A stretch of 46,064 nt of DNA from Candidatus Dormiibacterota bacterium (GTDB taxonomy: Bacteria; Chloroflexota; Dormibacteria; Dormibacterales; Dormibacteraceae): NCBI GenBank assembly GCA_036378395.1, contig DASUWN010000023.1:1-46064 (forward strand). Direction: 5' to 3'. The position numbers were made by a program, and so were the translations under genes. Shown here piece after piece: positions 1-30,684 of the stretch; position 1 is the stretch's first letter, and each line of letters begins with the position of its first letter. A model generated the notes under the pieces. That model saw only the letters and a list, made by a program, of their open reading frames with translations. It had not been told where the DNA came from and ran no database searches.

Positions 1-2
1 CG

Positions 3-476
3 GTGGCGGCCCGGCCGACTCCCCCACTCCCCACGCCGGTGCCGATCATCGATCTGCCCCAGACGATTCCGACTGCCGCTCCTCAAGCGGACCCGGCGGC
101 GCGGATCGAGATTCCAGAACTCGGGATCGACCTACAAGTCGTGCCTGGGGATGGGGTAAATGCGCCGTACTACAAGGCCGCCGAGTATCCGGCGCCCTTC
201 AAACTGCCCGGCCAGGGCGGGCGCTCGATGATCTACGCCCACGCCCAGAAGGGCATGTTCGGCCCCCTCTTCAATGGCAAGGTCGGCCAGCACGTCGACG
301 TCACGCTGGCCAGCGGGCGGGAGCTCCACTACGCGATCAGGGAGTACTACGCGCACTGGCCAGTCGACGACCTGCGCTGGTTCCAGCCCGGCGACCACGA
401 GCAGCTGCTGCTGGTCACCTGCACGACCTACAACCCCAACGATCCCCGAATCGTGGCTGTCGCGGAGCCGGTCTAA
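3..476 (+). CDS. sortase-family transpeptidase; 5' end probably lies outside the window
   Basis: The ORF is open to the window edge. A Pro-rich linker is followed by sortase motifs: IEIPELGIDLQVV, His in MIYAHAQ, Cys in LLLVTCTTY (TLxTC-like), Arg in DPRIVAVA. Confidence 0.8.
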   Translation: MAARPTPPLPTPVPIIDLPQTIPTAAPQADPAARIEIPELGIDLQVVPGDGVNAPYYKAAEYPAPFKLPGQGGRSMIYAHAQKGMFGPLFNGKVGQHVDVTLASGRELHYAIREYYAHWPVDDLRWFQPGDHEQLLLVTCTTYNPNDPRIVAVAEPV

Positions 477-2840
477 TTAGGCCGCGTGCGTGTGGACGAC
501 GAACCGCTGCGTGTAGCCGCCGTTCACGAAGTCTCCGGCGCAGGTAACCAGCGACAGGCTGGCCACCCCGTTGCCGTTGCGATCGAAGAGCCAGCTTGGC
601 GGCGAGCTGGCCCCGTAGTAGTTGTAGCCGTCAACGACGAAGTGGCCGGTGCTGCCGTCCACCCGGTCGACAAACACGTCCATCCCGCCGGTCACGCTGG
701 TCAGATGGCAGAAGACCGCGCACGAGGTGTCGTACCAGTCGACGTGGCCGGTCATCAGGGCGTCCCCGTACTCGCCCGGGCTCGGCCACTGGTTCTCCCA
801 GGCGACATCCCAGCTGTTGCTCGGCGAACCCAGGTCGCCGCCCGGCGTCATGGCGACCGACTCGACCGCCGCGTTGATGCCGAGGGCCGGAATGCGCAAA
901 CGTGCCGGCGCCGCCGCCACGGGACCCGGCCGCACCGGACCGAAGTACGCCGGGAGACCCTGCCCGTATGAGTTCAGGGCTCGAATCGTGAAGGAGTAGC
1001 CCACGTTGGGATCCAGGCCGGCGACCTGGATTCCGTTGTGATCGGTCCCAATCGGCTCCGCGTAACCCGCCGGAGCCGGACTGACCCAGACGTAGTAGCC
1101 GAACACGGCAGCGCCGCCGTTGTTGAGCGGAGTCTGCCAGCTGAGGCTGATCGCGCCCGCCGTATGCACATAGGTGATGCCGGTGACAGCGTCTGGTGTC
1201 CCCACCGGCGTGGTCACTGAAAGCGAGGCGGCGGGGCTGGTGCCCGTGCCGTTCAGCGCCACCACCGCCATCGTGTACGTGGTCTGGTTGGACAGGCCAT
1301 CGAACAGATAGGTCGTCTGCGAGCCGGGGACGGGGATGTCGCCGAGGCCAGGGACCAGGATGTCGTAGCTGACAATCGCCGTCCCGCCGGTGTCGGCTGG
1401 CGGAGTCCAGGAGACACGGACCTGGTGGTCGCCGGTCGCGGCGCTCAGGGAGGGCGCCGCGGGCGGCGAGACGTAGCCCGGAACGTAGTCGTAGTAGCCG
1501 ACCACGTCGGCGATCACCTGGGTGACGTTGGCCGAGTTGTAAACGGTGACCGAGCCATCCGCCGAGAGTGGGGTCACATCGAGGTTCGGCACCGGGCCGC
1601 CAGCCGCGAAGTTGATGTCCGAGGCCAGTGGCCTTCCCCCGCCGGCCGCGAAGGCGAGCTCGTAGGTCGGGCCGCTGGTCTCCGCCAGGGTGAGGTTCAT
1701 CACCACCGCACTGGCCCCGGCGGGGACCGTCGAGTAGGTGGCGACGGGAAGGTTGATCCGTGAGTTGGGGCCGAGCGCGCCGTAGTGGGCGGTGCCCGGA
1801 ACTCTGGTGTCGAGAATGCGGGTTGGCGAGGTGCCGATGAAGTGGCCCCCGGCTGCGCCCGGATTCGAGCTGTCGGTGAACCAACCCGAGACGTCAACCA
1901 GGACCTGCACGCTTGCGCTGGCGTTGTAGATCCCGATGTAGCCGCGGCCATCAAGGCGGACCACCGCCCGCACCGCGCGCGTCTGGCCGCCGACGAAATT
2001 GAGGTTGGAGACGCCGCTGTTGCCATCCGCGAGCGGGAACACCGCGAGGTAGTCGGGACCCGAGGCGTCAGTCTCGGTGAGGTTGATCGCGACCGCCGAC
2101 GCATTGGCGGGGACGTCGCCGACCCCGGCGACGGCGAGTGCGATCGTGGCCTGAGGAGCAATGGGTCCGGTCGTCCCCCCGGTGCCGATACGGGTGTCGA
2201 GCAGGCGCTGCGGCGTGAGCGGCCGGAAGAGGCCCGACGGCCCCGGATCGGACTGATACCAGCCCTCGAGGTCGATGATCAGCGAGATCGCGCTGTTGTT
2301 GACGTAGACGTCGAGGTAGCCGGCCTGCGGGCCGCTCTGCTGGATCGCGACTTCGACCAGGTTGGCGTGGGTCTCGCCGGGACCCCAGTTGAGGTTGGAG
2401 GCCAGCGGCCGCGCGTCGCCGGCGGGATAGACCGTGAGGTATCCCGGGCGGTCGGTATCCGTGACCGTCACGCTGGCGACCACGGCGGTCACGCCCTGCG
2501 CGACGCTCGGGATCTCGAAGGCGCCGGCGATCGGGACCAGCACCGTTTGCTCGGGCCCGATGCGCCCGATGCCCAGCAGCCCGAGCCGGGTGTCGACCAG
2601 CCTTCGCGGAGTCGAAAGTGAGTGGTAGCGGGAAGCGTTGGTGCTGGAGTGGCCGGTGGCCGCCGCTGCGGGCTGCGGCCGCCCCGGGCCCACCGTCGCC
2701 ATCAACGCAAGGGCGAGCAGTGCGGACAAAAAAAGGGCGGGCCACCGTGGCCCGCCCTTGATGTTGGGTATCAGTTGGCTGCTAGGCGCGCGAGGGCATC
2801 TCGGAGCGGCGCCGGCCGCGGGAGAGCCCAAAGGTCCCAC
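477..2840 (-). CDS. secreted or anchored multidomain protein: 3 x ~110-aa repeat, 2 x FN3-like, C-terminal sortase (class F-like) catalytic domain
   Basis: Signal/anchor KGGPRWPALFLSALLALALMATVG..AAAA. Three repeats (LVDTR/LLDTR/ILDTR ... SNLNW/SNLNF/SDINF ... GWY/GWF/GYY). FN3-like modules (VRVSWTPPADTGG, ISLSWQTPLNNGG). The last ~150 aa read RLRIPALGINAAV, MTGHVDW, SLVTCAGDF, QRFVV, giving a His/Cys/Arg sortase triad. The start is uncertain: ATG 2840 or TTG 2831 both overlap the upstream gene. Confidence 0.8.
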   Translation of the reverse strand: MGPLGSPAAGAAPRCPRAPSSQLIPNIKGGPRWPALFLSALLALALMATVGPGRPQPAAAATGHSSTNASRYHSLSTPRRLVDTRLGLLGIGRIGPEQTVLVPIAGAFEIPSVAQGVTAVVASVTVTDTDRPGYLTVYPAGDARPLASNLNWGPGETHANLVEVAIQQSGPQAGYLDVYVNNSAISLIIDLEGWYQSDPGPSGLFRPLTPQRLLDTRIGTGGTTGPIAPQATIALAVAGVGDVPANASAVAINLTETDASGPDYLAVFPLADGNSGVSNLNFVGGQTRAVRAVVRLDGRGYIGIYNASASVQVLVDVSGWFTDSSNPGAAGGHFIGTSPTRILDTRVPGTAHYGALGPNSRINLPVATYSTVPAGASAVVMNLTLAETSGPTYELAFAAGGGRPLASDINFAAGGPVPNLDVTPLSADGSVTVYNSANVTQVIADVVGYYDYVPGYVSPPAAPSLSAATGDHQVRVSWTPPADTGGTAIVSYDILVPGLGDIPVPGSQTTYLFDGLSNQTTYTMAVVALNGTGTSPAASLSVTTPVGTPDAVTGITYVHTAGAISLSWQTPLNNGGAAVFGYYVWVSPAPAGYAEPIGTDHNGIQVAGLDPNVGYSFTIRALNSYGQGLPAYFGPVRPGPVAAAPARLRIPALGINAAVESVAMTPGGDLGSPSNSWDVAWENQWPSPGEYGDALMTGHVDWYDTSCAVFCHLTSVTGGMDVFVDRVDGSTGHFVVDGYNYYGASSPPSWLFDRNGNGVASLSLVTCAGDFVNGGYTQRFVVHTHAA
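2728..2759 (-). terminator. intrinsic-terminator-like hairpin plus T7 run downstream of the small surface-protein gene
   Basis: The minus strand reads AAGGGCGGGCCA-CGG-TGGCCCGCCCTTTTTTT: a perfect 10-12 bp GC stem, a 3-nt loop and 7 T. It begins 23 nt after the stop at 2782 and lies inside the predicted signal-peptide codons of the 787-aa ORF. Confidence 0.6.
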
Positions 2841-3294
2841 CGATCAGAAGCAGCACGCCGAGGGCGATCACAAACCAGCCGAAGGGAATCGACTGCTGGG
2901 CCGCCGTGGTGTTCGGGAAGCCACCGGCCACGGTCACGCTGGCCGAAACGGTCGCTCCACCCGGAGCGGTCGCGGTCAGGGTCACGGTCTGGCCCGCGCA
3001 GGAGCTCGGGATCACGACCGAGGTCGTGGCCTGGTGGTTGGCGTCGAGCGCGGCGCTCGCCGGGTTCATCGTTGTGCCCGAGCACGAGGAGCTGAATGCG
3101 ATGCTGGTGCCGGCCGGGAGGTCGGTGAAGGTCGCGGTGAAGGAGAACGCGGATCCGGGCTGGACCGTGCTGGCGCTCACCGAGCCACCGGAGCCGGGCG
3201 AGGTGTCTACGTATGCGAATGCCGGGACGCTGATCATGAGCGCGCCGCCAACGATGGCGAGCAACCCAAGCGAACGGACGAGCTTCCGAATCAT
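2782..3294 (-). CDS. small secreted surface protein with a C-terminal sortase-type sorting signal (FPNTT + TM + RGRRR)
   Basis: Start taken at MIRKLVRSLGLLAIVGGALMISVPAFA (signal peptide). A ~110-aa Ser/Thr-rich, beta-rich body with 2 Cys. The C-terminus is GGFPNTTAAQQS-IPFGWFVIALGVLLLIGGTFGL-SRGRRRSE, a pentapeptide/hydrophobic/basic tripartite signal. Confidence 0.7.
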   Translation of the reverse strand: MIRKLVRSLGLLAIVGGALMISVPAFAYVDTSPGSGGSVSASTVQPGSAFSFTATFTDLPAGTSIAFSSSCSGTTMNPASAALDANHQATTSVVIPSSCAGQTVTLTATAPGGATVSASVTVAGGFPNTTAAQQSIPFGWFVIALGVLLLIGGTFGLSRGRRRSEMPSRA

Positions 3295-3349
3295 CGTTGC
3301 GCGAGCCCTCCTCAGAGAAATGGAAACGCCCCCGGTGGGAATCGTTGGG

Positions 3350-3378
3350 ACGTTAACAGACATCGGCGTCAACGTCAA
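3350..3378 (-). promoter_or_regulatory. candidate sigma70-type promoter for the surface-protein gene
   Basis: The minus strand has a tandem TTGACGTTGACG, then a 17-nt spacer from the upstream TTGACG to TAACGT. It lies ~55 nt upstream of ATG 3294, and a GAGGAGGG Shine-Dalgarno sequence follows. Pattern match only. Confidence 0.25.
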
Positions 3379-3393
3379 TCACCGCTCTTTAAT

Positions 3394-4869
3394 CTAGTTT
3401 CCAGCCCTCGACGCCTCGACCGGCGCGGTCGCGGCAGGTGCCGCTTGCGAGGCCGTGGCGGCCGCCGTCCCATTGGGAGCGTAGTAGCCGTATTCGGCGT
3501 AGTAGCCGTCGTAGTCATAGCCCCCGCGGCCGGTGCGCACCTTGTTCACCACGACGCCCAGAATCTGGCCCCGGACGCGTTCAATCGCTTCGCGCGCATG
3601 GGCGAGCGCCGGATATGTTGTGCGTGCACTTTCGGCTACAAAGATCACGCCGTCGCAGCGCGCGGCGAGGATCATCGCGTCCGTTACCGCATTGACCGGC
3701 GGGGTATCGATCACGACGTAGTGATAGCTCTCCCGGAAGTGCGCCAGAACCTCGAGCATCCGGCCCGACCCGAGCAATTCGGAGGGATTCGGCGGCGTCG
3801 GTCCGGAAGCAACGAAATGCAGGTTGGGAACGCCCTCGACCGCGCTCACCAATTCGCGCTCGGGAATGTCCTGGATCATCAGGTTGGAAAGGCCGACGTT
3901 GCGCACACGGCCGAGGATCCGGTGCTGCGATGGGCGCCGGAAGTCGGCGTCCACGAGCAGGGTGCGGTAGCCGGCCTGGGCGAGCGCCACCGCGAGGTTG
4001 GCCGTGGTTCGCGACTTGCCCTCGCCAGGGGCCGACGAGGTGATCACGATCGTCCGGAGATCGCGATCGACGCCCGAGAAGAGGAGATTGGTCCGAAGCA
4101 CGCGGTAGGCCTCGGCGATCGTCGAGTTGGGATCGAGGACGACCAGCTCCGCGCGTCGCGCGCGCGGCGCCGGCGCAAAGCCCACGTGAGCGATCGGGAC
4201 GACGCCGCTGCGACGCACGAGATCGTCGTCACTTTTGACCGTCTGATCGAGGTATTCGCGCAGCACGATGATTCCCGCACCGAGCAGCAAACCGGCAGCG
4301 GCGGCGAGCAGCGTGTTGAGCAATAGATTGGGCGAAACCGGCTTGGTCGGGGTCACCGCCGGCGCCACCACGACCAGGTTGTCCTGCGGGCGCGTGTTCT
4401 GCGCGGATTGCTCCTGGCTCTGGATCGCCTTCATCTGGTTGATGAAGTCGCTGACCAGCGTATTCGCGATGTCCCGCGCCAGATTGGGATTGGTGCTGTC
4501 GGCGGAAACGTCGAGGATGGTCGTGTTGGGCTGCGGCGTGACCTTGATCTGCTTGGCGAGGTTCTCGGGCGTGGTGTTGAGATTGAGCTCGGTGATCACC
4601 TGCTGGAGCAGGGGCCGCTCCGTCATCAGCGTGGCGTAGGTGCGCGAGATCTGGTCGCTGGTGAGTGCGGCGCCGTTGGTGTCGACCGGCAGCACCTGCG
4701 CGGGTCGCACCAGCAGCGCGACGTGTCCTTCGTATACCGGTGGCAGGACTTTGCTCACGCCCGCGGCCACCGCGGCCGAGATCACCGGGCACAGGATCAG
4801 GATCCACAGCGAGCGGCGCAGGATTCGCAGATAGCGGCGGATGTCGACCGAGCTGGCGCTGGAGTCCAT
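3394..4869 (-). CDS. polysaccharide co-polymerase / tyrosine autokinase (Wzz domain + BY-kinase)
   Basis: N-terminal TM plus chain-length-determinant region, a second TM, Walker A SSAPGEGKSRTTANLA, VDADFRRP, and a C-terminal Tyr cluster GGYDYDGYYAEYGYY. Confidence 0.9.
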   Translation of the reverse strand: MDSSASSVDIRRYLRILRRSLWILILCPVISAAVAAGVSKVLPPVYEGHVALLVRPAQVLPVDTNGAALTSDQISRTYATLMTERPLLQQVITELNLNTTPENLAKQIKVTPQPNTTILDVSADSTNPNLARDIANTLVSDFINQMKAIQSQEQSAQNTRPQDNLVVVAPAVTPTKPVSPNLLLNTLLAAAAGLLLGAGIIVLREYLDQTVKSDDDLVRRSGVVPIAHVGFAPAPRARRAELVVLDPNSTIAEAYRVLRTNLLFSGVDRDLRTIVITSSAPGEGKSRTTANLAVALAQAGYRTLLVDADFRRPSQHRILGRVRNVGLSNLMIQDIPERELVSAVEGVPNLHFVASGPTPPNPSELLGSGRMLEVLAHFRESYHYVVIDTPPVNAVTDAMILAARCDGVIFVAESARTTYPALAHAREAIERVRGQILGVVVNKVRTGRGGYDYDGYYAEYGYYAPNGTAAATASQAAPAATAPVEASRAGN

Positions 4870-4983
4870 TACGGGTTGAGAGATGGGTTCATGGTATGCC
4901 TGGCAGCCCGGACTGGCCCGGGTGGGAGCCGCGCGGCGAGCGGGCCGAAATTGTAGCGGCGGGTTCTGGGCGGGTCAAAGTGC

Positions 4984-5174
4984 CTAGTGGTCTGTCCGGG
5001 AATTAGCTCGACAAGACGCGATCTCGGCGCCCGGTGCCGAGGAGCCGACGAGCAAGTGAGGGAGCGCACCGAGTGGTGCGCGACTGAGCGCGCACAGGAG
5101 GCGACAATGGCATCAGCGCAGCCCGGGCGCCTAGGTCGATGGATTGTCGAGCGGTTTCCCGGATGGACCACTAG
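4984..5174. mobile_element. MITE-like element, family A, copy 1 (191 bp)
   Basis: About 95% identical by eye to 17989-18179. Terminal inverted repeats CTAGTGGTCTGTCCGGGAATTAGCTCGAC / GTCGAGCGGTTTCCCGGATGGACCACTAG. CTAG at both ends. No transposase-sized ORF. Confidence 0.85.
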
Positions 5175-5185
5175 AATCGCGCGGT

Positions 5186-6325
5186 TTGCGGGCATCCCTC
5201 ATCCCTCCCCGACCCAGCCTGCGGTGGCTGGCCGCGATCGCCGGCGCCGGAATCCTGGTTGGGCTAGCGGTCGCCCTCGCCTCGGGGGTGCAGTCGCTGA
5301 ACGACGTCACCCGTTCGGCGGGGGCCGGCTCCGGAGCGGCCGCTTCGGAGGCGCGCCTGTTTCCTTCTGCGTCGCCGGCAGCAGAGCCGACGGCGGTCCC
5401 GCCGGCTTCAGTGGCCGGGCGGGCCGGCGCCGCGCCTCGGCTGTATGCGGCCGACGCCAGGCATCTGCTGCTGGTGGGCGTCCGCGCTTATCTGTCTGCG
5501 GACGGCGGTGTGACGTGGTCTCCGCTACCTGACTCTTCGGGAGAAGGCGTGGTGCCGGATTCGGGCCAGCCCCAGCGGATGATCGCGGGCGGGTCTTCAG
5601 TGTGGACCACGGCCAACGGCGGCTCGGGCTGGCAGCAGGTCACCAACCTGCCGGGAGCCTCGCAGGCGCCGTATGTCGCGCTGGCGATCAACCCCGACGA
5701 TCCGACGGTATGGTTCTTCGCGGCCGGGCCGACGATCTTGCGGACCCGCGACGCCGGCCACTCCTGGAAGCTCGGGCTCGGGGGCGTGCCGGCTCCTCTG
5801 GACCACCCGGTGCTGCGGCCGGCCGGGGCGAAGGACGCGTTCGCGCTGGCGAGCGGGCGCCACGTCTATCTGCTGCGGGACAACGGCCAGGCGGTCGACG
5901 ACCTGGGTGCTCTGCCCGCTTCCGACAGCGGTGCGCCGGTCGTGGACCTGGCCGGCCTCGGCGGTGGGAGCTATGCCGCGGCGGGGGCGGACGGGACGGT
6001 CTACGTCCTGTCGGGTGGCGCGTGGGCGGCGGTGGCGCCGGTGGCGCCGGTGGCGCCGGTGGGTGTCGCCCTGGCTGCGGGGTCGGGGCGGGTGGTGGTC
6101 GCCGGCGGCGGGGGCCGGCTCGGGGCGCCGGGGGTGGCCTGGGCCAGCGGGGACGGCGGGGCGACCTGGACCGCGGCGGCGGGCCTGCCCAAGGACGAGT
6201 CGATCGAGGCGGTCGCGTTCGCCTCGGATGGGAGCGCCTTCGCTTACGGGTTTGGGGGCGACCTGTACGCGTCTTCGAATGGTGGTGGCAGCTGGACGCT
6301 GCGCTCGACGGCCCTCCGGGGCTAG
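5186..6325 (+). CDS. membrane-anchored BNR/Asp-box repeat (sialidase/Ycf48-like beta-propeller) protein
   Basis: TM segment WLAAIAGAGILVGLAVALASG. Five Asp-box-like motifs: SADGGVTW, TANGGSGW, TRDAGHSW, SGDGGATW, SSNGGGSW. The start is uncertain: the ORF-track TTG 5144 lies inside the MITE, and in-frame TTG 5186 lies just outside it. Confidence 0.65.
   Translation: MRASLIPPRPSLRWLAAIAGAGILVGLAVALASGVQSLNDVTRSAGAGSGAAASEARLFPSASPAAEPTAVPPASVAGRAGAAPRLYAADARHLLLVGVRAYLSADGGVTWSPLPDSSGEGVVPDSGQPQRMIAGGSSVWTTANGGSGWQQVTNLPGASQAPYVALAINPDDPTVWFFAAGPTILRTRDAGHSWKLGLGGVPAPLDHPVLRPAGAKDAFALASGRHVYLLRDNGQAVDDLGALPASDSGAPVVDLAGLGGGSYAAAGADGTVYVLSGGAWAAVAPVAPVAPVGVALAAGSGRVVVAGGGGRLGAPGVAWASGDGGATWTAAAGLPKDESIEAVAFASDGSAFAYGFGGDLYASSNGGGSWTLRSTALRG
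6032..6058 (+). repeat. 3 x 9-bp perfect tandem repeat GTGGCGCCG (encodes VAPVAPVAP) inside the BNR gene
   Basis: Direct reading of gtggcgccggtggcgccggtggcgccg. Confidence 0.8.
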
Positions 6326-8549: not shown

Positions 8550-8600
8550 CCTTAACAGGGATGGTTGGGGGTGGCGAGGCGGCGGGCCGATGCTTTCCCC

Positions 8601-9467
8601 ATGCCCCAACCACTGATCCCGCCCGAACTGGGGGCCGGTCCGTTCAGCCTCGGCCGCGCGCTGAGGGCCGGCCTGTCGCGCCACCACCTCGAGTCCAGAG
8701 TGTGGCGGCGATTGGCCCACCAAACCTACGCCCTGCGGGACGCACCGACGACTCCGGAGGGACTGCTCGCCGCCAGCTTGGAACGGCTGCCACCGGAGAC
8801 CGTGTTTTCGGGAACCACCGCAGCCTGGCTGCACGGCCTCGACCTTTCGCCCACCGATCCGATCGACGTGACGCTGCCACCGGGGAGCGTGGTTTCCCAG
8901 CGAGTGGGGCTCCGCGTACACCGGCGACGCCTGTCCCGGGCCGAGATCGTGCCGCGCGGCAACTTCTCCATCACATCCATCGAGCGGACCCTCTTCGACC
9001 TGGCCCGCGACCTGCCCCTGGTGGAGGCGGTCGTCGCCGCCGACATGGCGCTCTATGCGGGGCAGGTGCGGCTGGGCGCGCTGACGCGGTTTGCGTGGCG
9101 CCGCGGACGGTGGCCGGGGTCGCGAAAGTTGCGGCGGGTCATCGAGCTGGCAGAACCCAAGACCGAGTCGCCGATGGAAACGCGCCTCCGGATGCGGCTG
9201 GTCCTGGCGGGACTGCCACGCCCCGAGGCCCAGGTGGAACTCCACGACGCCGAGGGTCACTTCCTCGCCAGGGCCGACCTTTACTACCCCGAAGCGCGGC
9301 TGGTGCTCGAGTTCGACGGCTCGGTCCACCGGGACCGCCTCACCGAGGACAGCCGGCGCCAGAACCAGCTGCTGGCGGCCGGATACCGCCTCCTGCGCTT
9401 CACCACCGCCGACGTTCTGGGCCGGCCCGAGACCGTGGTCGCGCTGGTTCGGGGCGCGTTGACTTAG
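8601..9467 (+). CDS. DUF559 / Vsr-like endonuclease-fold protein with an AbiEi_4-like N-terminal domain
   Basis: N-terminus MPQPLIPPELGAGPFSLGRALRAGLSRHHLESRVWRRL. C-terminus EFDGSVHRDRLTEDSRRQNQLLAAGYRLLRFT. Typical of the actinobacterial DUF559 family, recognised from memory. Confidence 0.7.
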   Translation: MPQPLIPPELGAGPFSLGRALRAGLSRHHLESRVWRRLAHQTYALRDAPTTPEGLLAASLERLPPETVFSGTTAAWLHGLDLSPTDPIDVTLPPGSVVSQRVGLRVHRRRLSRAEIVPRGNFSITSIERTLFDLARDLPLVEAVVAADMALYAGQVRLGALTRFAWRRGRWPGSRKLRRVIELAEPKTESPMETRLRMRLVLAGLPRPEAQVELHDAEGHFLARADLYYPEARLVLEFDGSVHRDRLTEDSRRQNQLLAAGYRLLRFTTADVLGRPETVVALVRGALT

Positions 9468-9487
9468 TCGGGGACTTAGTTTAGTTT
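9459..9487 (+). promoter_or_regulatory. candidate promoter giving a leaderless TA transcript, with ACTTAGT direct repeats
   Basis: TTGACT, 17 nt, TAGTTT, ending 7 nt before the TTG start at 9495. GACTTAGT occurs twice (9461-9468, 9473-9480). This is the most AT-rich stretch in the window. Confidence 0.35.
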
Positions 9488-9494
9488 GAATTAA

Positions 9495-9725
9495 TTGACG
9501 AGGGTTGGCGTCCACCAGGCCAAGACCCGGCTGTCCGAGCTGCTGCGCCGGGTCGCCAGCGGCGAGGAGATCGTGATCATGCGCGGAGCTGATCCGATCG
9601 CGAAGCTCGTGCCCGTCGCTTCGGGCCGGCAGCGGCGGCTGGGAATCGATCGGGGCAAGCTCACCGTTCCCGACGACTTCGACGCTCCACTCCCCGACGA
9701 GGTCCTGGACGGGTTCGAGCAGTGA
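9495..9725 (+). CDS. type II antitoxin, Phd/YefM family
   Basis: VGVHQAKTRLSELLRRVASGEEIVIMRGADPIAKLVP. 76 aa. Overlaps the toxin gene by 4 nt. Confidence 0.8.
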   Translation: MTRVGVHQAKTRLSELLRRVASGEEIVIMRGADPIAKLVPVASGRQRRLGIDRGKLTVPDDFDAPLPDEVLDGFEQ

Positions 9726-10114
9726 CCTACCTGCTGGACACCCACGTCTGGCTCTGGATGCAGGCGGCGCCGGAGCGGCTGAGCGACCGCGTCCGCAAGC
9801 TGATCGCGGACGCGGGCGTCGACCTGCTGTTCTCCGCGGCCAGCTCCTGGGAGATAGCCATCAAGCATTCACAGGGGCGGCTCGAACTGCCCGAGCCGCC
9901 GGTCACCTATGTGCCCTCCCGGATGCGCGCTTCAGGCGTGCAGGGCCTCCCGATCAAACACATCCACGCCCTCCAGATGGCCGGCCTCGAGCCGCACCAT
10001 CGCGATCCATTCGATCGAATGCTGGTCGCCCAAGCGCAGGTCGAGGGCCTGACGATCATCACCGCCGATCCCGTGTTCTCCCGTTACGCGGTGCCGGTCC
10101 TGATCGCCGCCTAA
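9722..10114 (+). CDS. vapC: type II toxin, PIN-domain ribonuclease (VapC family)
   Basis: MTYLLDTHVWLWM, SAASSWEIAIK, HRDPFDRMLVAQAQVEGLTIITAD. 130 aa. Confidence 0.85.
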   Translation: MTYLLDTHVWLWMQAAPERLSDRVRKLIADAGVDLLFSAASSWEIAIKHSQGRLELPEPPVTYVPSRMRASGVQGLPIKHIHALQMAGLEPHHRDPFDRMLVAQAQVEGLTIITADPVFSRYAVPVLIAA

Positions 10115-15414: not shown

Positions 15415-15557
15415 CTCTGTGGAATTTCCCCCGGGTGCGAGCCGGGAAGAGTAGCAGAGGCCGGCGGCTAAAACTCTGTCTAGCCAGCGACTTGACGGGC
15501 TGTTAGCATGGCGCGGCCATCGGGAGCGGAGGGGTTCCGGGAGCGGGGTCGGGGTGG

Positions 15558-18011
15558 TTGCGGCACGCGATCGCGGCCGCCGGCTGCCTCGCGGTGGTCG
15601 CCGCCCTGGCACCCACTTCAGCGGTGGCGGCGGGTCCGGCGCCTGGACGGGCGATGGCGATCGGCAGCCCGCACTTTGCGGCGCCGCGCCAGGCCGGTCG
15701 CGCTCCGACCGCACCGATTGCGACGACCCCGATGACCTACGGGGGTGGGTCCCCGCGCGGCGCGATCCTGGCGCCGATCGCGTACCTCGTCTTCTGGGGC
15801 GACTGGACCAGCACGGCATCGCAGGTCACGACCCACAACTTCACTCGGAACTTCTTCACCGACGTCGGCGGGACCAGCTGGCTGCACACGGTCACGCAGT
15901 ACTGCTCTGGCGCCGTGGCCACGGCCGCCTCGTGCGGCACGGGCACGCTGCCGATAACCAACCCCGCACTCTCCTTCGGTGGCGAGTGGGACGATACCTC
16001 GAGCCCGAGCTGGGGCGCGAATGCGACGGAGACCGATGTTGCGAACGCCCTGGCCACTGAGGTTCAGAGCTCGCTGAGCCACTTCCCTGGCCTGGTTCCA
16101 ACCAACGCGGTCATCTTCGTGATGCCGCACGGCGGCGCCGTCCCATTCGGCTATCGCAGCACCTATTGCGGATTCCACACGGCGTTTTCCAGCGGCGGGT
16201 TGATATACCAGGATTCGCTGCTCCCGTACTCGTCGGGCGACCCGTATTGCTGGGCGAACTTTGGCAGCAATCCCGACTCCGGCTACTCGATCGTGGGCGG
16301 CCACGAGTACGCGGAGGCGATCACCGATCCGTGGCCCAACGTCGGCTGGGTCAACCGTGATCCGGCTTTAGGCGGACAGGGGGAGATCGGCGACCTGTGC
16401 GACGGCAACCACCTCGCGGACGGGACCGTGACCCTCAGCAACGGGCACAGCTACCCCGTTCAGGCGCTGTTCAGCAACGCTGACCTGCCGAGCCCGTGCG
16501 TATTCGGCACCAGCCTGGCTCAGGTTCCAGGCGCCCCGACCGCTGTGACCGCGGTCGCCGGAATCGGGTCGGCAATCGTGAGCTGGGCACCGCCGGCCTC
16601 GATTGGCTCCAGCGCGATCACGCTGTACACGATCGCGTCCTCCGGCGGCGCCGTTGTGTCAGTCGGTGCCGGAGTCAACACGGCCAAGTTCACCGCGCTC
16701 GCGACGGGCGCTCACACGTTCACCGTCACCGCGACCAACGCCGCCGGCGTCGGACCGGCGTCGTCACCGTCCAACACCGTGTATCCCCTCGCGGGTGGGA
16801 CCTACCACCCGCAGGCGCCGCAGCGCATCCTCGACACGCGAACTGGGAATGGGACCGGCGGCGACACCCATCCGGTGGGCCCAGGCGGAGAGCTGACGGT
16901 GCTGGTCGCGGGCCGGGGTGGCGTGCCCGCCGCCCACGTCAGCGCGGTGGTCCTCAACGTGACGGTCACCGACGCCAGCTGGTTCAGCTACCTTACCGTG
17001 TACCCCACGGGCATCGCGCCACCCCTCGCATCCAATCTCAACTGGGCGCCCGGTCAGACGGTTGCCAACCTGGTCGAAATTCCGCTCGGCACCGGCGGCG
17101 AAGTGTCGATCTACAACTCGCAGGGAAGCGCGGACGTGATCTTCGACGTCCAGGGCTGGGTCGGTGACAACTTCAATTCGGCCGGCCGCGACGGCCTGTT
17201 CAATCCCCTCAGTCCCTCCCGCATCCTCGATACACGGACCGGAAACGGAACTGGCGGCTCCGTCGGTCAGCTTGGCCCGGGCCAGTCGCTCAACCTGGTA
17301 GTCGCCGGCCGCGGCGGCGTTCCCGCCTCGGGGGTATCGGCAGTGGTGCTCAACCTGACCGAGACCAGCCCCACCGCCGGCAGCTATCTAACCGCCTATC
17401 CGGCCGGCGTCCAGCCGCCGCTGGCCTCGAACCTCAACTACGGGCCCGGCATCACTCGCGCCAACCGGGTGATGGTCGCGCTTGGGAACAGCGGGATGAT
17501 CACCATCTACAACTCACAAGGCTGGGTCGACGTGATCGTCGACGTCAATGGCTGGTTTACGGACAGCACCAGCCTGGCCGGCGGCAGCGCGTTCGTCGGC
17601 GGTACTCCGAACCGGGTCTACGACACCCGGAACACAGGCGGACCACTTGGCGATGGCGGCACCCTGACGCTGGTCGATTACGGTGCCGCCTACAGCGACA
17701 TCAAAGCCTTCGTCCTGAACGTGACCGTGACCGACACCAGTTGGTACAGCTACCTCGAAGTGTGGCCTTTCGCGGCACCCCAGCCCACCGCCTCGGACAT
17801 CAACTGGGCGCCGGGCGAGACCAATCCCAACCTCGTGATCGTGGCGTCGGGACCCTCGCTCGCCGGCGGGGTGGCTTATGCGGCCTTTGAGACCTACAAC
17901 TCGCAGGGCGCGACCGACGTGATCTACGACATGGTCGGGTACTACGGCTCAGCGGTGGCGGCGCCCTCGCTCGCCAGCCCCCGTTTCGCTAGTGGTCTGT
18001 CCGGGAATTAG
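15558..18011 (+). CDS. secreted multidomain protein: unknown ~300-aa Cys-containing N-domain, FN3, 4 x ~110-aa repeat (same family as in 477-2840)
   Basis: Signal peptide AAAGCLAVVAALAPTSAVAA. The N-domain carries YLVFWGDW, YCGFHTAF and GGHEYAEAITDP. FN3 segment AIVSWAPPASIGSS. Four repeats (RILDTRTGNGTGG ... SNLNW ... YNSQG..DV..DV.GW). The last 7 codons plus the stop lie inside MITE-A copy 2. Confidence 0.8.
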   Translation: MRHAIAAAGCLAVVAALAPTSAVAAGPAPGRAMAIGSPHFAAPRQAGRAPTAPIATTPMTYGGGSPRGAILAPIAYLVFWGDWTSTASQVTTHNFTRNFFTDVGGTSWLHTVTQYCSGAVATAASCGTGTLPITNPALSFGGEWDDTSSPSWGANATETDVANALATEVQSSLSHFPGLVPTNAVIFVMPHGGAVPFGYRSTYCGFHTAFSSGGLIYQDSLLPYSSGDPYCWANFGSNPDSGYSIVGGHEYAEAITDPWPNVGWVNRDPALGGQGEIGDLCDGNHLADGTVTLSNGHSYPVQALFSNADLPSPCVFGTSLAQVPGAPTAVTAVAGIGSAIVSWAPPASIGSSAITLYTIASSGGAVVSVGAGVNTAKFTALATGAHTFTVTATNAAGVGPASSPSNTVYPLAGGTYHPQAPQRILDTRTGNGTGGDTHPVGPGGELTVLVAGRGGVPAAHVSAVVLNVTVTDASWFSYLTVYPTGIAPPLASNLNWAPGQTVANLVEIPLGTGGEVSIYNSQGSADVIFDVQGWVGDNFNSAGRDGLFNPLSPSRILDTRTGNGTGGSVGQLGPGQSLNLVVAGRGGVPASGVSAVVLNLTETSPTAGSYLTAYPAGVQPPLASNLNYGPGITRANRVMVALGNSGMITIYNSQGWVDVIVDVNGWFTDSTSLAGGSAFVGGTPNRVYDTRNTGGPLGDGGTLTLVDYGAAYSDIKAFVLNVTVTDTSWYSYLEVWPFAAPQPTASDINWAPGETNPNLVIVASGPSLAGGVAYAAFETYNSQGATDVIYDMVGYYGSAVAAPSLASPRFASGLSGN

Positions 18012-27235: not shown

Positions 27236-27990
27236 GCAGGTTTCTCGGGCTGCTGAATGATCTGGCGCGGTTCACCGATGCCGAGATGGCGCGACCCTGG
27301 ACGTGGCCCGGCCACGCCGGGGAGGCGCTGCAGCTCCGCGACCTGCACTGGCGGATCGTCGAGGCCGAACAGGCGGCGCTGGTCACAGCACCGGTGGCGA
27401 CCACCGAACCGGCCGCCATCATGGACCTCGCCCAGACCGCCTTGGGCGATCTGCGCGGATTGCTGACCGGGCTGCCGGGGATGCTGCTCGACCGCGAGCC
27501 GGACTCCGGCGAGTGGACTCTGCGCGAGGTGCTGGCCCACGTGCTGCTGGTGGAGCGCCGGTACCTGCGCCAGGTTCGGTATGCGGCCGAGCGCGCGGAG
27601 ACCGATCCCGTCTATCTGCGGGCGCCTCTTGAGCTCCAGGAGGAGGAGCGCGCGGGCGACGTGGCCGACTGGCTCGAGCGCCTCGAGCAATCTCGCGCGG
27701 AGAGCGACGCCTACTGCTCCCGGCTGCCGCTGGAAGCGCTGATCCGGCCCACGATGTGGGCCGGTCATGAGGTTGACGTGCGCTTCCGGCTGCACCGCTT
27801 CGCGGCCCACCTCGACGAGCACCGGATCCACTGCCAGAAGGTCGTGCGCGCACTGGGAATCGAGCCCACCGAGGCGCGCGAGATCGTACGCACGCTCTCC
27901 GGGCTGCGCGGCTCCCACGAGCGAAGGACGCCGCGCGAAGAACTGGACAGCCTGGACGCGCGCCACCTGGCCCTCGCCGCCAACGCCTAG
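27232..27990 (+). CDS. DinB-family protein
   Basis: GTGA overlap with the upstream stop. WTLREVLAHVLLVERRY and AAHLDEHRIHC, giving spaced His typical of DinB four-helix bundles. Confidence 0.6.
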   Translation: MSRFLGLLNDLARFTDAEMARPWTWPGHAGEALQLRDLHWRIVEAEQAALVTAPVATTEPAAIMDLAQTALGDLRGLLTGLPGMLLDREPDSGEWTLREVLAHVLLVERRYLRQVRYAAERAETDPVYLRAPLELQEEERAGDVADWLERLEQSRAESDAYCSRLPLEALIRPTMWAGHEVDVRFRLHRFAAHLDEHRIHCQKVVRALGIEPTEAREIVRTLSGLRGSHERRTPREELDSLDARHLALAANA

Positions 27991-29258
27991 CCAAAGCCCG
28001 TGATCTCCGGCTGGGCCTGGCGGACCGGATAGAAGACCGGACCCGCCATCACCTCCACGATGTCCATCCCGTACGGCCCCAGCCAGGTTCCTCCGGAGAG
28101 CACCTCCCAGGAGCGGGCGTAGGTGATGATCGCCGAGACCGGGTAGCCGCCCGCCGACTGGGTCTGGTAGCGATGGACGACGGTGGCCGGCATCGGATAA
28201 GCCTGTCCAAACCCGGCCGGGACCGAGTAGAAGTCCTCCCCGCCATCGCCGAAAACCCAGGTCACCTGCTCGGGCCGCGAAGAGACCACGTACTCGGTCG
28301 AACCTACGTACTCGACGTTGTAAACGCTGGCCGGGCGCGGCGAAAGCCAAAAGTAGGAGTCGAGTCCGGTTAGTCCTGCCGGCCACGGGTTGATCTGAAC
28401 GCTCGGCGGCGGTGGCGCCGGTGGTGGTGGCGGCGGCGCCAGGACCGAGCCACAGGCGACCTGGTCGCCGGTCCCATTGCCGAGGGCGTCGAAGGCGCTG
28501 ACATGGACGCAGGCCGTCTGTCCCGCGGCCAACCCGGAGGCGGTCAGCGCCCGAGGATAGGGCGTAGCCGCGTACTGTTGGGGCGGTCCGCCGTTGACGG
28601 TCACCCAGGACAGAAAGTGATCGAACCCGGCGACAAAGTAGTCGGCGCCCGCGCCGTCGCCGCGATCGCTGACCGGTCCCCAGCTGAAGCTGACCGAGCT
28701 GGTCGTGACCCCGATGACCACTGGGACCGGCGGGTTGGGTGGCACCGAGTCGACATAGATGTCGACCACCGGCCACCCGTAGACGTCGGCCATGTACGGC
28801 GGAGGACCCCCGGCGCCGAAGTAGCCGTACCCGCAGCTGCCGCCGAAGGTCCAGTTGTAGTAGCCCACGAACTGCTTCGCGTGACCGTGCACCTGCCAGC
28901 CGAAGTCGGCGAAGTTCCAGTGGCCCGGAGGACCGCCGTAGTAGCTGGTCGTGATGTAGTGCCAGCCGGAGTCGTCGCCAGGATGGCCGGCGAAGTCCCC
29001 GTACCAGTACCCGTACCACTGGTCCCAGCCGGGGTCGTAGTGGATGCCCCAGAAGGTGTCCCGCTCGGGGTTGTTGGGCACCGAAGGGTCGTTGGTGACG
29101 ACGGAGGTATAGGTGTAGGGCAAGAACGAGTACCAGGGACAGAACCCCCAGGGATCGCCATAGGCGGAGCCCCAGCTGCTGGCCGCCACCTCGCGCGTGG
29201 CGGTCAATGAGCTGAGGCCCCACAGAAGCCCGATCAGCAGGACCGCCACCCGGCGCAT
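27987..29258 (-). CDS. secreted protein: Trp/Tyr/Gly-rich N-domain, FN3-like, poly-Pro linker, PKD-like C-domain; function unknown
   Basis: Signal peptide MRRVAVLLIGLLWGLSSLTA. WDQWYGYWYGDFAGHPGDDSGWHY, VSFSWGPVSD, PPPPPPAPPPP, VTWVFGDGG...VVHRY. Start trimmed to ATG 29258. Confidence 0.65.
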   Translation of the reverse strand: MRRVAVLLIGLLWGLSSLTATREVAASSWGSAYGDPWGFCPWYSFLPYTYTSVVTNDPSVPNNPERDTFWGIHYDPGWDQWYGYWYGDFAGHPGDDSGWHYITTSYYGGPPGHWNFADFGWQVHGHAKQFVGYYNWTFGGSCGYGYFGAGGPPPYMADVYGWPVVDIYVDSVPPNPPVPVVIGVTTSSVSFSWGPVSDRGDGAGADYFVAGFDHFLSWVTVNGGPPQQYAATPYPRALTASGLAAGQTACVHVSAFDALGNGTGDQVACGSVLAPPPPPPAPPPPSVQINPWPAGLTGLDSYFWLSPRPASVYNVEYVGSTEYVVSSRPEQVTWVFGDGGEDFYSVPAGFGQAYPMPATVVHRYQTQSAGGYPVSAIITYARSWEVLSGGTWLGPYGMDIVEVMAGPVFYPVRQAQPEITGFG

Positions 29259-29462
29259 GCACGCACTCTCGGCCCTCGCGAGCGCGAGTGGAACCCCTGT
29301 TAAGACCCGGCCTTTACAACCCGACGTGGGCGCCCATACTGCCCGCACTTTCCGGGGGGACATGGGGGGAGGATGGCAATCAAGGGCCTGCTCAACTCGG
29401 CGTTGGGTTGGTGGCGATGCTGGTCCTCGTCGGCTGCATGACTGTGAACTAGCAGGCTGATG

Positions 29463-29499
29463 AAAAAGCCTCGCGCGCATGCGCGTGCGCGCGCGAGGC
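29463..29499 (-). terminator. hairpin plus T5 inside the IS left end (terminator-like on the minus strand)
   Basis: GCCTCGCGCGC-(loop)-GCGCGCGAGGC followed on the minus strand by TTTTT. It lies between the IS interior and the left IR. Confidence 0.4.
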
Positions 29500-29559
29500 C
29501 CTAAACTGCCAGCAACTCGTCTCCCGCTTCGTCCTCATCCACGTCCTCCAGGAGGCAGC

Positions 29560-30684
29560 ATGCGCGGCTCGACCACCCGCCAGGTCACCTTGCTCACCGT
29601 CACAGCCGACGACCTAATCCCCCCAGACCACCCGATCCGGCGCGTGAAGCCGTTCGTGGAAGCCGCACTCGCACAGCTGAGCCCCGTCTTCGACGAGATG
29701 TACGCCGAGAGCGGCCGACCCTCGATCCCACCCGAGCACCTGCTCAAGGCCTGCCTGCTGATGGCCTTCTATTCGATCCGGAGCGAGCGTCAGTTCTGCG
29801 AGCGGCTGCAATATGACCTGCTCTTCAAGTGGTTCCTGGACCTCAATGTCGAGGATCCCGCCTTCGACCAGAGCACCTTCGCCAAGAACCGAGAGCGGCT
29901 GCTCGACCACGACGTCAGCCGGCGCTTTTTCGAGGCGGTCCTCGAGCTCGCCCGCCAGCAGCACTTGCTCTCCAACCAGCACTTCACGGTTGACGGCACC
30001 CTGCTCGAATCCTGGGCCTCGCTCAAGAGTTTCAAGCCTCGCGGTCCCAACCTGGGCGGCCAGCGCAAGCCGAAGCGGGGAGGCCGGCGACCACCGCCTC
30101 CAGGCAGCAACCCCGAGGTCAACTTCCACGGGGAGAAGCGAAGCAACCAGACTCATATCTCAACCACCGACCCCGAAGCCAGGCTGGCCCGCAAAGGCCT
30201 CGGCAAGGAGGCCAAGCTGAGCTTCGCCGCCCATCTCTTGATGGAGAACCGCAACGGGCTCGCTGTTGACGTCCTGGTCACCGAAGCGACTGGGACCGCG
30301 GAGAGGGATGCCGGCGTCGTCATGGTCAGCAAGCTGCGCCAGCGGCATCCCGGCCGGCGACTGACGGTCGGCGCCGACAAGAACTACGACACCGAGAACT
30401 TCGTCAACCAGATGCGCGAGCTCAAGGTCATTCCCCACGTCGCTCAGAACATCACCGATTTCCGGGGCAGCCGGATTCCCTACCGCATCGCCAACCAGCC
30501 CGGGTACGCCATCAGCCAGCGGATGCGCAAACGGATCGAGGAGATCTTCGGCTGGCTGAAGACGGTCGCTGGTGGCCGGAAGCTCAGATATCGCGGGATG
30601 AGACGAAACCAGCTCTGGGCCGACATAGCCACCGCCGCCTTCAACCTGGTCAGAATCGGAAACCTCATGGCGGAGCCTGCATAG
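29560..30684 (+). CDS. IS5-family DDE transposase
   Basis: AGGAGG 5 nt before the ATG. InsH-type N-domain (PPEHLLKACLLMAFYSIRSERQFCERLQYDLLFKWFL). Candidate DDE residues in FTVDGTLLESWAS, TVGADKNYD and RKRIEEIFGWLK. Confidence 0.88.
   Translation: MRGSTTRQVTLLTVTADDLIPPDHPIRRVKPFVEAALAQLSPVFDEMYAESGRPSIPPEHLLKACLLMAFYSIRSERQFCERLQYDLLFKWFLDLNVEDPAFDQSTFAKNRERLLDHDVSRRFFEAVLELARQQHLLSNQHFTVDGTLLESWASLKSFKPRGPNLGGQRKPKRGGRRPPPPGSNPEVNFHGEKRSNQTHISTTDPEARLARKGLGKEAKLSFAAHLLMENRNGLAVDVLVTEATGTAERDAGVVMVSKLRQRHPGRRLTVGADKNYDTENFVNQMRELKVIPHVAQNITDFRGSRIPYRIANQPGYAISQRMRKRIEEIFGWLKTVAGGRKLRYRGMRRNQLWADIATAAFNLVRIGNLMAEPA

Follow-up and report, generated by a model that had tools for sequence, protein, structure and literature searches.

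The window analyzed here is the whole of contig DASUWN010000023.1 (46,064 nucleotides, read on the forward strand) from the assembly GCA_036378395.1 of a Candidatus Dormiibacterota bacterium from soil. Within its first 5 kb, two sortase genes, one coding for a small enzyme and the other for an enzyme whose catalytic domain is carried on a long stalk of repeats, lie next to the gene of a small secreted protein that ends in a sorting signal with the pentapeptide FPNTT (hereafter the FPNT protein), itself preceded in its own reading direction by a gene of polysaccharide synthesis:

3-476 (+): small housekeeping-type sortase, 3' 157 codons; Pfam PF04203, E 5.9e-16; proposed enzyme of the FPNTT protein
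477-2729 (-): stalked sortase gene, TTG start at 2729, 750 aa; the maximal open reading frame (ORF) is 477-2840, 787 aa
2726-2759 (-): Rho-independent terminator of the small FPNT gene, AAGGGCGGGCCA-CGG-TGGCCCGCCCTT, then a T-run
2782-3294 (-): predicted sortase substrate of 170 aa, ATG start, with a GGAGG ribosome-binding site upstream
3394-4869 (-): Wzz/bacterial tyrosine (BY) autokinase; Pfam Wzz, GNVR, and AAA_31; TIGR01007, E 5e-56

Sortase Genes at the Start of the Window

The Wzz/BY-kinase gene is found directly upstream of the small FPNT gene in every locus seen, and its presence points to a polysaccharide locus. Taken as a whole, the explanation that we favor, at somewhat better than even probability, is that the region forms the margin of a locus for cell-envelope polysaccharide in a monoderm bacterium of Dormibacterota type and contains two separate sortase systems. 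An initial annotation of the sequence had instead described the two sortases and the FPNT protein as one coherent three-gene module. What is conserved between genomes is another unit, made of the Wzz/BY-kinase, the FPNT protein, and the convergent small sortase with a DUF4012 gene, into which the stalked sortase is intercalated only in the window and in one further locus (L005; loci are numbered with L and proteins with P), a conserved terminator separating it from the small gene. Moreover, the small sortase lies on the opposite strand to the stalked gene and converges on it, so that the three genes cannot be one operon. The same annotation was borne out in its claim that both sortases retain an intact His/Cys/Arg triad: with 58.8 bits for the small and 44.2 bits for the stalked enzyme, both match PF04203 above its cut-off of 26.6, and the triads align in both.

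The FPNT Protein and the Small Sortase

The translation of the FPNT gene divides as follows:

3214-3294 (-): signal peptide MIRKL…VPAFA, cut VPAFA/YVD
2908-3213 (-): mature part, 102 aa
2905-2919 (-): FPNTT pentapeptide
2824-2889 (-): transmembrane (TM) segment IPFGWFVIALGVLLLIGGTFGL
2785-2823 (-): basic tail SRGRRRSEMPSRA, ending in RGRRR

Its C-terminus thus reads GGFPNTT-AAQQS-IPFGWFVIALGVLLLIGGTFGL-SRGRRRSEMPSRA, which is the tripartite succession of pentapeptide, TM segment, and basic tail, and both the 170-aa secreted protein and its FPNTT codons (2905–2919) lie exactly where the initial annotation had placed them. The mature part is rich in Ser, Thr, and Ala (35% Ser + Thr) and contains neither Lys, Arg, nor Glu; because it has no Lys, pilin-type polymerization via a Lys nucleophile is excluded. 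This domain is probably Ig-like, in that the weak Pfam matches among its homologues are all to Ig-like families (Big_1 at 2e-4 in one of them) and that an analogous small protein in L008 is annotated as Big_1. BLASTP yielded nine homologues, eight of them 46–77% identical to the window protein and one 33% identical. Across these nine and the window protein, G-G-F-P-N-T is invariant (10/10), position 5 being T, A, or S, and two Cys are also invariant in all 10. Since GGFPNT is kept among homologues down to 33% identity, it stands out as a sorting motif beyond chance, and the conservation in related genomes on which the initial annotation depended is indeed found. With F at position 1 and T, A, or S at position 5, the signal matches neither the canonical LPXTG pentapeptide nor a curated anchor model, the sole anchor-type match of the substrate in NCBIfam being a sub-threshold one to Microco_LAVTG (13.7 vs. 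27). An antisense ORF at 2906–3397 (+), preferred by a filter on G+C at third codon positions (GC3), was rejected in favor of the minus-strand product, for which its signal peptide, its sorting signal, its conserved homologues, and a GC3 of 0.88 speak. By analogy with GspA of Actinomyces oris, one may also speculate that the composition of the substrate and its fixed place after the BY-kinase gene fit a glycosylated carrier protein linked to exopolysaccharide (EPS).

The small sortase displays the motifs initially reported (YAHA, VTCT, and PRIV), with its catalytic H at 240–242, C at 420–422, and R at 447–449. Its frame is open to base 1, where the contig ends, which implies that the gene lacks some 34 codons at its 5' end when compared with the 191-aa orthologue of L003; judging from orthologues, the part lost is the N-terminal TM anchor of about 34 aa. 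That the enzyme is stand-alone, as had been claimed, is not visible in the window itself but is deduced from these orthologues, which are stand-alone, membrane-anchored proteins of 183–197 aa with a TM segment of about 20 residues and 87–92% identity to the window copy (87% for P0132, the cluster representative of the L003 orthologue). In 37 homologues, H and R are invariant and C is nearly so, and YAH, LVTC, and PR align to class C structures. The family as a whole comprises 86 clusters of 126–227 aa, nearly all of 175–203 aa, with a TM anchor and the H/C/R triad; its named members are labelled Dormibacteria, Dormibacteraeota, or Chloroflexota. These sortases are usually in operon with a priming sugar transferase and with DUF4012, a known component of Gram-positive EPS clusters (PMC5412050, PMC6744442). 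The small sortase reaches no curated class model of NCBIfam (best score 30 bits): it scores 23.8 bits against the class F model NF033748, whose cut-off is 166, and 13.7 bits against the LPxTATN-specific class D model NF058671, whose cut-off is 140. The stalked domain gives no match to the latter, so that the likeness to class D and its LPNTA motif, put forward in the initial annotation, does not extend to either enzyme.

The gene order of L003 and L004 bears on the pairing of this enzyme with the FPNT protein. Both loci show a BNR protein, the Wzz/BY-kinase, the FPNT protein, and then a convergent sortase of 191–197 aa with DUF4012, these last two genes following without interruption in L003 and behind a pair of inserted genes in L004, and both are devoid of a stalked sortase. 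The sortase likewise adjoins or is near an FPNT-type gene in the window, in L013, and in other loci. On a wider scale, we fetched 80 genome loci with members of the small-sortase family, scanned all their ORFs for a C-terminal TM segment followed by a basic tail, and restricted the count to the 29 distinct loci whose sortase scored at least 160 bits. A small ORF with a motif, a TM segment, and a basic tail lies beside or close to the sortase in about 19 of these 29 loci, the motifs being FPNTT, FPNTA, FPATS, LPFTS, LPFTG, LPNTS, LPRTD, LPRTS, LPPTS, LPAST, and LPDAG, and such pairs sit inside polysaccharide loci (Wzz/BY-kinase, DUF4012). Judging from these motifs, FPNT[TAS] would be the version, in one lineage, of an [FL]PxT[STAGD] signal recognized by the small-sortase family. 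This recurrent neighborhood makes the small sortase the likely cognate enzyme, and thereby provides a provisional answer to the question, left open at first, of which of the two sortases processes the small protein.

We accordingly regard as quite probable, on the strength of motif and gene neighborhood, that the FPNT protein would be a dedicated substrate of the small membrane sortase and a terminal wall protein in a context of capsule or EPS synthesis. Sec would export the 170-aa protein, whose C-terminal TM segment and Arg-rich tail would retain it; the membrane-anchored small sortase would then cleave it after the Thr of GGFPNT and transfer its Ig-like, Lys-free domain of about 100 aa to a peptidoglycan precursor, the product being predicted to end as a terminal wall-anchored protein rather than as a pilus subunit. 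An uncultured phylum of little-known envelope biology would thereby gain a concrete, testable enzyme–substrate pair, and a sortase for signals with F at position 1 and without Gly at position 5 could widen the toolbox of sortase-mediated ligation.

The Stalked Sortase

From its N-terminus to its C-terminus, the stalked protein consists of a short signal peptide, three jelly-roll repeats, two fibronectin type III (FN3) domains, and a class-F-like sortase domain. Repeats were delimited with a dedicated hidden Markov model (HMM), the all-beta fold being also predicted by AlphaFold2 (AF2):

2658-2729 (-): putative short signal peptide MSALLALALMATVGPGRPQPAAAA, read from the sequence, present only with the TTG 2729 start and uncertain
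1485-2630 (-): triplet repeat module, all-beta; repeat HMM, AF2
2241-2630 (-): repeat 1; repeat HMM
1857-2234 (-): repeat 2; repeat HMM
1485-1847 (-): repeat 3; repeat HMM
933-1466 (-): two FN3 domains (~1206-1466 and 933-1184); Pfam PF00041, E 1.6e-19
486-899 (-): class-F-like sortase domain; Pfam, E 1.9e-11, residues 648-785

The gene had initially been taken to span the maximal ORF of 787 aa (477–2840). This ORF does exist, with its two FN3 domains and its C-terminal sortase, but its codons 1–37 overlap the 3' end of the small FPNT gene (19 codons and the stop) as well as the terminator of that gene, which implies that they are non-coding and that the real protein has about 741–750 aa. The orthologues P0002 and P0003 have 746 and 747 aa, and the alternative start ATG 2702, which gives the 741 aa of the gene-caller prediction P0001, aligns with the start in L005. 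The terminator itself is near-perfect, with a 12-bp stem, a stem-loop at 2733–2759, and a T-run down to 2726; terminators with other stem sequences occupy the same position in L005 (3203–3236) and L003 (10539–10577), which argues for conservation as a structure and amounts to compensatory change. Since TTG 2729 is inside the T-tract and ATG 2702 only about 25 nt after the T-run, the stalked gene should be expressible only by read-through or by a leaderless start.

The putative signal peptide MSALLALALMATVGPGRPQPAAAA, which lacks a basic n-region, precedes an AxA-type cleavage site, and P0003 has a comparable signal peptide, also without basic n-region. The N-termini of the orthologues have hydrophobic cores of 12–17 residues and then AxA sites (VAA/Y, ASA/Y, VHA/A, and AHA/Y), and thus look like cleavable signal peptides. 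As a gene, the stalked sortase behaves as a variable insert, present in two of the four informative FPNT loci (the window and L005), while P0002 and P0003 are encoded in other contexts, without an FPNT gene. Scans of metagenomes for further stalked orthologues returned nothing usable, and the genomic context of another relative, P0220, was uninformative.

The FN3 domains match their Pfam family in two stretches (70.3 bits, cut-off 25), their strands are modelled by AF2 at a predicted local distance difference test (pLDDT) score of about 90, and Foldseek with the whole AF2 model retrieved FN3 tandems only; we read these two domains as a spacer between the anchor module and the catalytic domain. 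In the latter, the catalytic residues are H699 at 744–746 (TGHVDW), C767 at 540–542 (LVTCAG), and R779 at 504–506 (QRFVV). The comparison with class F drawn in the initial annotation stands in so far as class_F_sortase NF033748 is the best class model (E 4e-26, positions 8–153 of 155), although the score of 91.5 bits remains below the cut-off of 166. In an alignment of 64 relatives, His65 and Cys133 are invariant and Arg145 is kept in at least 90% of the sequences, and the profile built from these 64 sequences found a solved class C sortase in the PDB (8t28, E 4.3e-11) with GH and TC aligned; on these grounds, the catalytic domain looks functional. A search of the PDB with the single sequence gave a match to an antibody only, which we discarded as spurious. 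An additional C-x4-C pair (DTSCAVFC, 708–731 on the minus strand) directly follows the catalytic His and, being next to the active site, might form a disulfide or serve as a redox switch; it is kept in P0002, P0003, P0217, and P0220 and absent from most of the clade.

An exhaustive search among representative sequences returned 7,883 relatives of the stalked sortase domain, in which the signatures TGH…W, LxTC.G, and Y.QR are common. Most of the best 150 representatives have 180–280 aa, and 13 of these 150 have at least 340 aa, so that the multidomain stalk, initially described as unusual, is uncommon without being unique. The long members of the clade include P0284 (ice-binding-like and Ig domains, then sortase), P0275 (SpaA/DUF11/DUF7507, then sortase), and P0240 (353 aa), in which three S-layer homology (SLH) domains precede a class-F-like sortase, hence a separate, independent instance of a sortase carried by a non-covalent wall anchor. 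Outside this clade, SrtE of Actinoplanes missouriensis has 792 aa, with a class E domain at residues 575–775 (PMC13251363). Our literature search on Dormibacterota sortases and on multidomain FN3 sortases found nothing relevant.

Five of the class-F-like relatives (P0247, P0275, P0284, P0341, and P0349) carry a sortase motif of canonical appearance, [LMF]P[ND]TGL (LPNTGL, MPNTGL, FPNTGL, or FPDTGL) 15–45 residues upstream of their own sortase domain, after passenger domains (SpaA/DUF11, ice-binding-like, or Ig) and with no TM segment following. As their sequences read, these proteins may be substrate–enzyme fusions that cleave or anchor themselves, or the motif may act as a pseudo-substrate lid. 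The window protein has no such cis [LF]PxT motif between its second FN3 and its sortase domain (compare P0275, P0284, and P0349); the GLPA[YS]xG at this place belongs to the end of the FN3 domain. A different mode of attachment is suggested for several other class-F-like sortases, namely one encoded at 5093–5416 of L001 as well as P0230, P0235, and P0320, whose lipobox start (…LVAC/GQ, …VTAC/GQ) indicates lipoprotein anchoring rather than TM anchoring. One such lipobox enzyme is encoded directly downstream of the stalked orthologue P0002.

The Triplet Module

The three repeats of the stalk, initially estimated at about 110 aa, are indeed three but measure about 125 aa each; each opens with an xRxLDTR motif, and they match the repeat HMM at 6e-40, 1e-44, and 2e-39. 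No Pfam or NCBIfam family covers the module, and residues ~60–455 have no Pfam match at E < 0.1. A full-protein search, in which the 8,000 candidates sharing most words were scored, found at least 1,281 proteins at E ≤ 1e-5, a lower bound, most of which match over the triple repeat alone, or about 48% of the query. The copy number is strikingly constant: according to the repeat HMM, 117 of 120 proteins have exactly three copies, the other three having four (two proteins) or six (one protein). Of the 120, 94 bear the module at the C-terminus and 13 at the N-terminus, and the partners of the module are Amidase_2, Peptidase_M23, CHAP, YkuD, GH18, GH5, S8, CAP, PQQ propellers, FG-GAP, and others. 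Among actinomycetes that can be cultivated, Kitasatospora gansuensis possesses it. AF2 models the three repeats as one rigid all-beta unit (pLDDT 95.1, predicted template modelling score [pTM] 0.92), for which Foldseek against the PDB gives weak jelly-roll or carbohydrate-binding module (CBM)-like matches (the triple jelly roll of Sulfolobus turreted icosahedral virus [STIV], SGBP-B, Vip3, Cry domains, and CBM35).

The closest paralogues of the stalked sortase, P0004 and P0005, share its signal peptide, three repeats, and two FN3 domains at 50–52% identity, and a YkuD L,D-transpeptidase replaces the sortase; P0004 is encoded in a polysaccharide locus with a Wzm/Wzt ABC transporter, a GT2 glycosyltransferase, and a UDP-glucose dehydrogenase (L091, 6929–9142). 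Further fusions of the module to a sortase occur in P0301, from the same class-F-like clade, and in P0041, from the small-sortase clade. The window itself encodes a second, likewise secreted protein with the triplet:

15558-18011 (+): second triplet-module protein, module C-terminal, behind an N-terminal domain (~300 aa, unannotated) and a single FN3

In this protein, the repeats cover residues 431–559, 563–689, and 695–817 (numbering of the 15507–18011 translation), and their position at the C-terminus indicates that the module is a portable, putative anchor. On the whole, the module is a large family without Pfam or NCBIfam model, which would behave like a general surface-display anchor for wall hydrolases, proteases, and transpeptidases in soil monoderms.

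Proposed Mechanism of the Stalked Enzyme and Alternative Explanations

With regard to the stalked enzyme, we favor, at a little less than an even chance, the explanation that the protein is secreted, held in the envelope by a glycan-binding triplet, and presents a Cys transpeptidase there, with low expression by read-through. The triplet module would bind a wall or capsule glycan non-covalently, as a functional analogue of the SLH and CWB2 triplets; once the signal peptide is cut off, the enzyme would reside not in the membrane but in the wall, where its class-F-like domain, held at about two FN3 lengths from the anchor module, would perform Cys-dependent transpeptidation or cleavage, and its gene would be expressed at a low level by read-through of the small-gene terminator. 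Given the gene adjacency in the window and L005 and the cis xP[ND]TGL of relatives, the FPNT protein remains a candidate substrate of this enzyme as well. That the protein is a secreted, non-membrane sortase bound by a hitherto undescribed triplet, which would represent a third kind of triple-repeat envelope anchor after SLH and CWB2 and be widespread in Dormibacterota and Actinomycetota, possibly with self-anchoring xPNTGL relatives, is a conceivable but rather doubtful extension. If true, sortase chemistry would have moved from the membrane surface into the wall, and proteins could be ligated or trimmed on mature peptidoglycan or EPS independently of lipid II. To our knowledge, class F-type sortases have no established physiological role; the occurrence of a class F domain on wall-targeted scaffolds, swappable with an L,D-transpeptidase and sometimes accompanied by its own LPNTG, suggests one away from membrane-proximal sorting.

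Several observations weigh against this assignment of roles. In the window and in L005, the gene immediately downstream of the FPNT gene, on the same strand, is that of the stalked sortase, which could therefore also act on the FPNT protein, and the cis [LMF]P[ND]TGL motifs of class-F-like relatives make a preference for xPNTx plausible in this clade. In the AF2 model of the full-length protein, the sortase domain stays at pLDDT < 50, because only about four sequences cover it; the signal peptide of the window copy is marginal, the orthologous ATG start leaving no hydrophobic core; the data hold four stalked orthologues, so that synteny statistics for this enzyme are thin; and the repeat module has but weak structural matches (best E 7e-5, TM-score ≤ 0.21). 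The first two of these points also underlie the alternative that the stalked sortase is the enzyme, or a second enzyme, for the FPNTT protein, in an attenuated operon where read-through would yield scarce enzyme next to abundant substrate. The terminator and the start codon leave no space between them for a promoter, which would fit such an operon, and the five same-clade sortases with cis xP[ND]TGL, including FPNTG and FPDTG, suggest that the clade accepts F/L-P-N-T. However, the FPNT gene does without a stalked sortase in L003 and L004, P0002 and P0003 do without an FPNT gene, and a protein bearing a cell wall sorting signal beside the small sortase is a family-wide property, all of which makes this alternative rather unlikely. 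Far less credible is the idea that the C-terminus of the small protein (GG, TM segment, and basic residues) is not a sortase signal at all. GlyGly-CTERM/rhombosortase and PEP-CTERM/exosortase systems are often linked to EPS loci, and one may note here the invariant Gly-Gly before FPNT, the EPS-type locus, and the sub-threshold match of the BY-kinase to the XrtA-associated kinase model of NCBIfam. Yet Pfam scans of the predicted genes of the window revealed no exosortase, archaeosortase, or rhombosortase; GG, placed 11 residues upstream of the TM segment, varies in the wider family, in which [FL]PxT is kept (ENGCLPFTS, TSVLPNTS); and the conserved neighbor of the FPNT gene is a sortase. We thus rejected this exosortase or rhombosortase reading as extremely improbable.

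The location and the chemistry of the stalked enzyme could also be conceived otherwise. If its N-terminal hydrophobic segment were an uncleaved signal-anchor, the protein would be a membrane-anchored sortase of the usual kind, and its five-domain stalk would lift the catalytic domain through a thick wall or capsule, the repeats being spacers and not binders. All characterized sortases are membrane-anchored (PMC8225981), SrtE of A. missouriensis has about 570 residues ahead of its catalytic domain (PMC13251363), and FN3 domains are classic spacers. In contrast, hydrophobic cores of 12–17 aa followed by AxA sites are found in all orthologues, the C-terminal position of the triplet in 94 of 120 proteins makes a membrane-proximal spacer role impossible there, and the strict copy number of three together with the rigid packing (pTM 0.92) argues for a functional unit, such that we consider a membrane-bound stalk unlikely. 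Another option, for which the swap of YkuD into the same scaffold in P0004 and P0005 (50–52% identity) is suggestive, is that the sortase domain acts on peptidoglycan peptides, as a cross-link remodelling enzyme or endopeptidase that could be exchanged for the YkuD L,D-transpeptidase. Peptidoglycan enzymes (Amidase_2, M23, and CHAP) are found among the other cargos of the module, and deletion of all four class F sortases of A. missouriensis gave no sorting phenotype (PMC13251363). However, action on peptidoglycan stem peptides is not known from any sortase, and the cargos of the module include enzymes that have no relation to peptidoglycan (CAP, PQQ propellers, and GH5). On the data at hand, this option does not separate from the preferred reading of the stalked enzyme, that of a glycan-bound secreted transpeptidase; taken by itself, we consider it distinctly improbable.

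Comparison with Known Systems

The proposed pair of small sortase and FPNT protein is a lineage-specific variant of classical sorting, and the stalked enzyme is a new architectural variant. Like the housekeeping sortases (class A SrtA and actinobacterial class E SrtE), the small sortase is predicted, with its orthologues as a guide, to be a small type-II membrane-anchored Cys transpeptidase, and it has His/Cys/Arg and a TLxTC-like signature; as in the SrtA and SrtE systems with their LPXTG and LAXTG signals, the putative substrate combines a signal peptide with a pentapeptide, TM segment, and basic tail, and the genes of enzyme and substrate are adjacent. Unlike in those systems, the signal here is FPNT[TAS] ([FL]PxT[STAGD] family-wide), with FPNT and no Gly at position 5 in this lineage, and the genes sit in a Wzz/DUF4012/priming-transferase locus. 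The class D SrtC of Bacillus anthracis, with its LPNTA substrates BasH and BasI, resembles the present case by Asn at position 3, a non-Gly residue at position 5, and a dedicated sortase serving very few small substrates. However, neither of our enzymes belongs to class D, Phe occupies position 1, and there is no sporulation context, so that the likeness lies in the motif letters only.

The stalked domain shares with class F sortases (SrtF of Cutibacterium/Propionibacterium acnes and the paralogues of Streptomyces and Actinoplanes) the best model match and the TGH…W, LxTC.G, and Y.QR signatures; it differs from them in being C-terminal on an extracellular scaffold of about 600 aa, in having, where they show a TM anchor and a short linker, a signal peptide that looks cleavable, and in its extra C-x4-C. 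The catalytic domain of the A. missouriensis SrtE is likewise C-terminal, after a long N-terminal region, but is of another class. As for the scaffold, the SLH triplet, which binds pyruvylated secondary cell wall polymers (SCWPs), and the CWB2 triplet of the Clostridioides difficile Cwp proteins are also near-obligate triplets, found at either terminus of varied secreted enzymes that include peptidoglycan hydrolases. The module has no sequence relationship to them, belonging to neither PF00395 (SLH) nor PF04122 (CWB2), which makes the likeness an analogy; each repeat is an all-beta jelly-roll/CBM-like unit of about 125 aa, in contrast to the helical SLH and the alpha/beta CWB2, and binding remains putative here. 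Finally, YkuD L,D-transpeptidases with wall-binding domains, such as B. subtilis YkuD with its LysM, join a Cys transpeptidase to a wall-targeting module, as the stalked protein is proposed to do, the window protein having a sortase fold and not the YkuD fold.

Other Features of the Window

The G+C content of the window is 66–73%. An Rfam scan of positions 1–6000 gave no match. The remaining predicted genes are housekeeping ones (MetH, DXS, LutB-like, M17 peptidase, GltX, Lgt, and others), Lgt being encoded at 37128–37976. A protein of about 420–500 aa without Pfam match, encoded at 27987–29534 (-), has a probable signal peptide, an N-terminal region rich in Trp, Tyr, and Gly, and then a poly-Pro linker, and is probably another envelope protein. 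An insertion sequence (IS)-type DDE transposase (DUF772 and DDE_Tnp_1) is encoded at 29464–30684 (+). At 8556–10114 (+), a DUF559 endonuclease-like gene precedes a PIN-domain toxin gene; in the related sortase locus L009, about 10 PIN/antitoxin pairs form a block ahead of the locus. The metagenome-assembled genomes closest to the window are those of L003 and L004 (GCA_964383855.1 and GCA_964640005.1), which are labelled "uncultured Actinomycetes bacterium."

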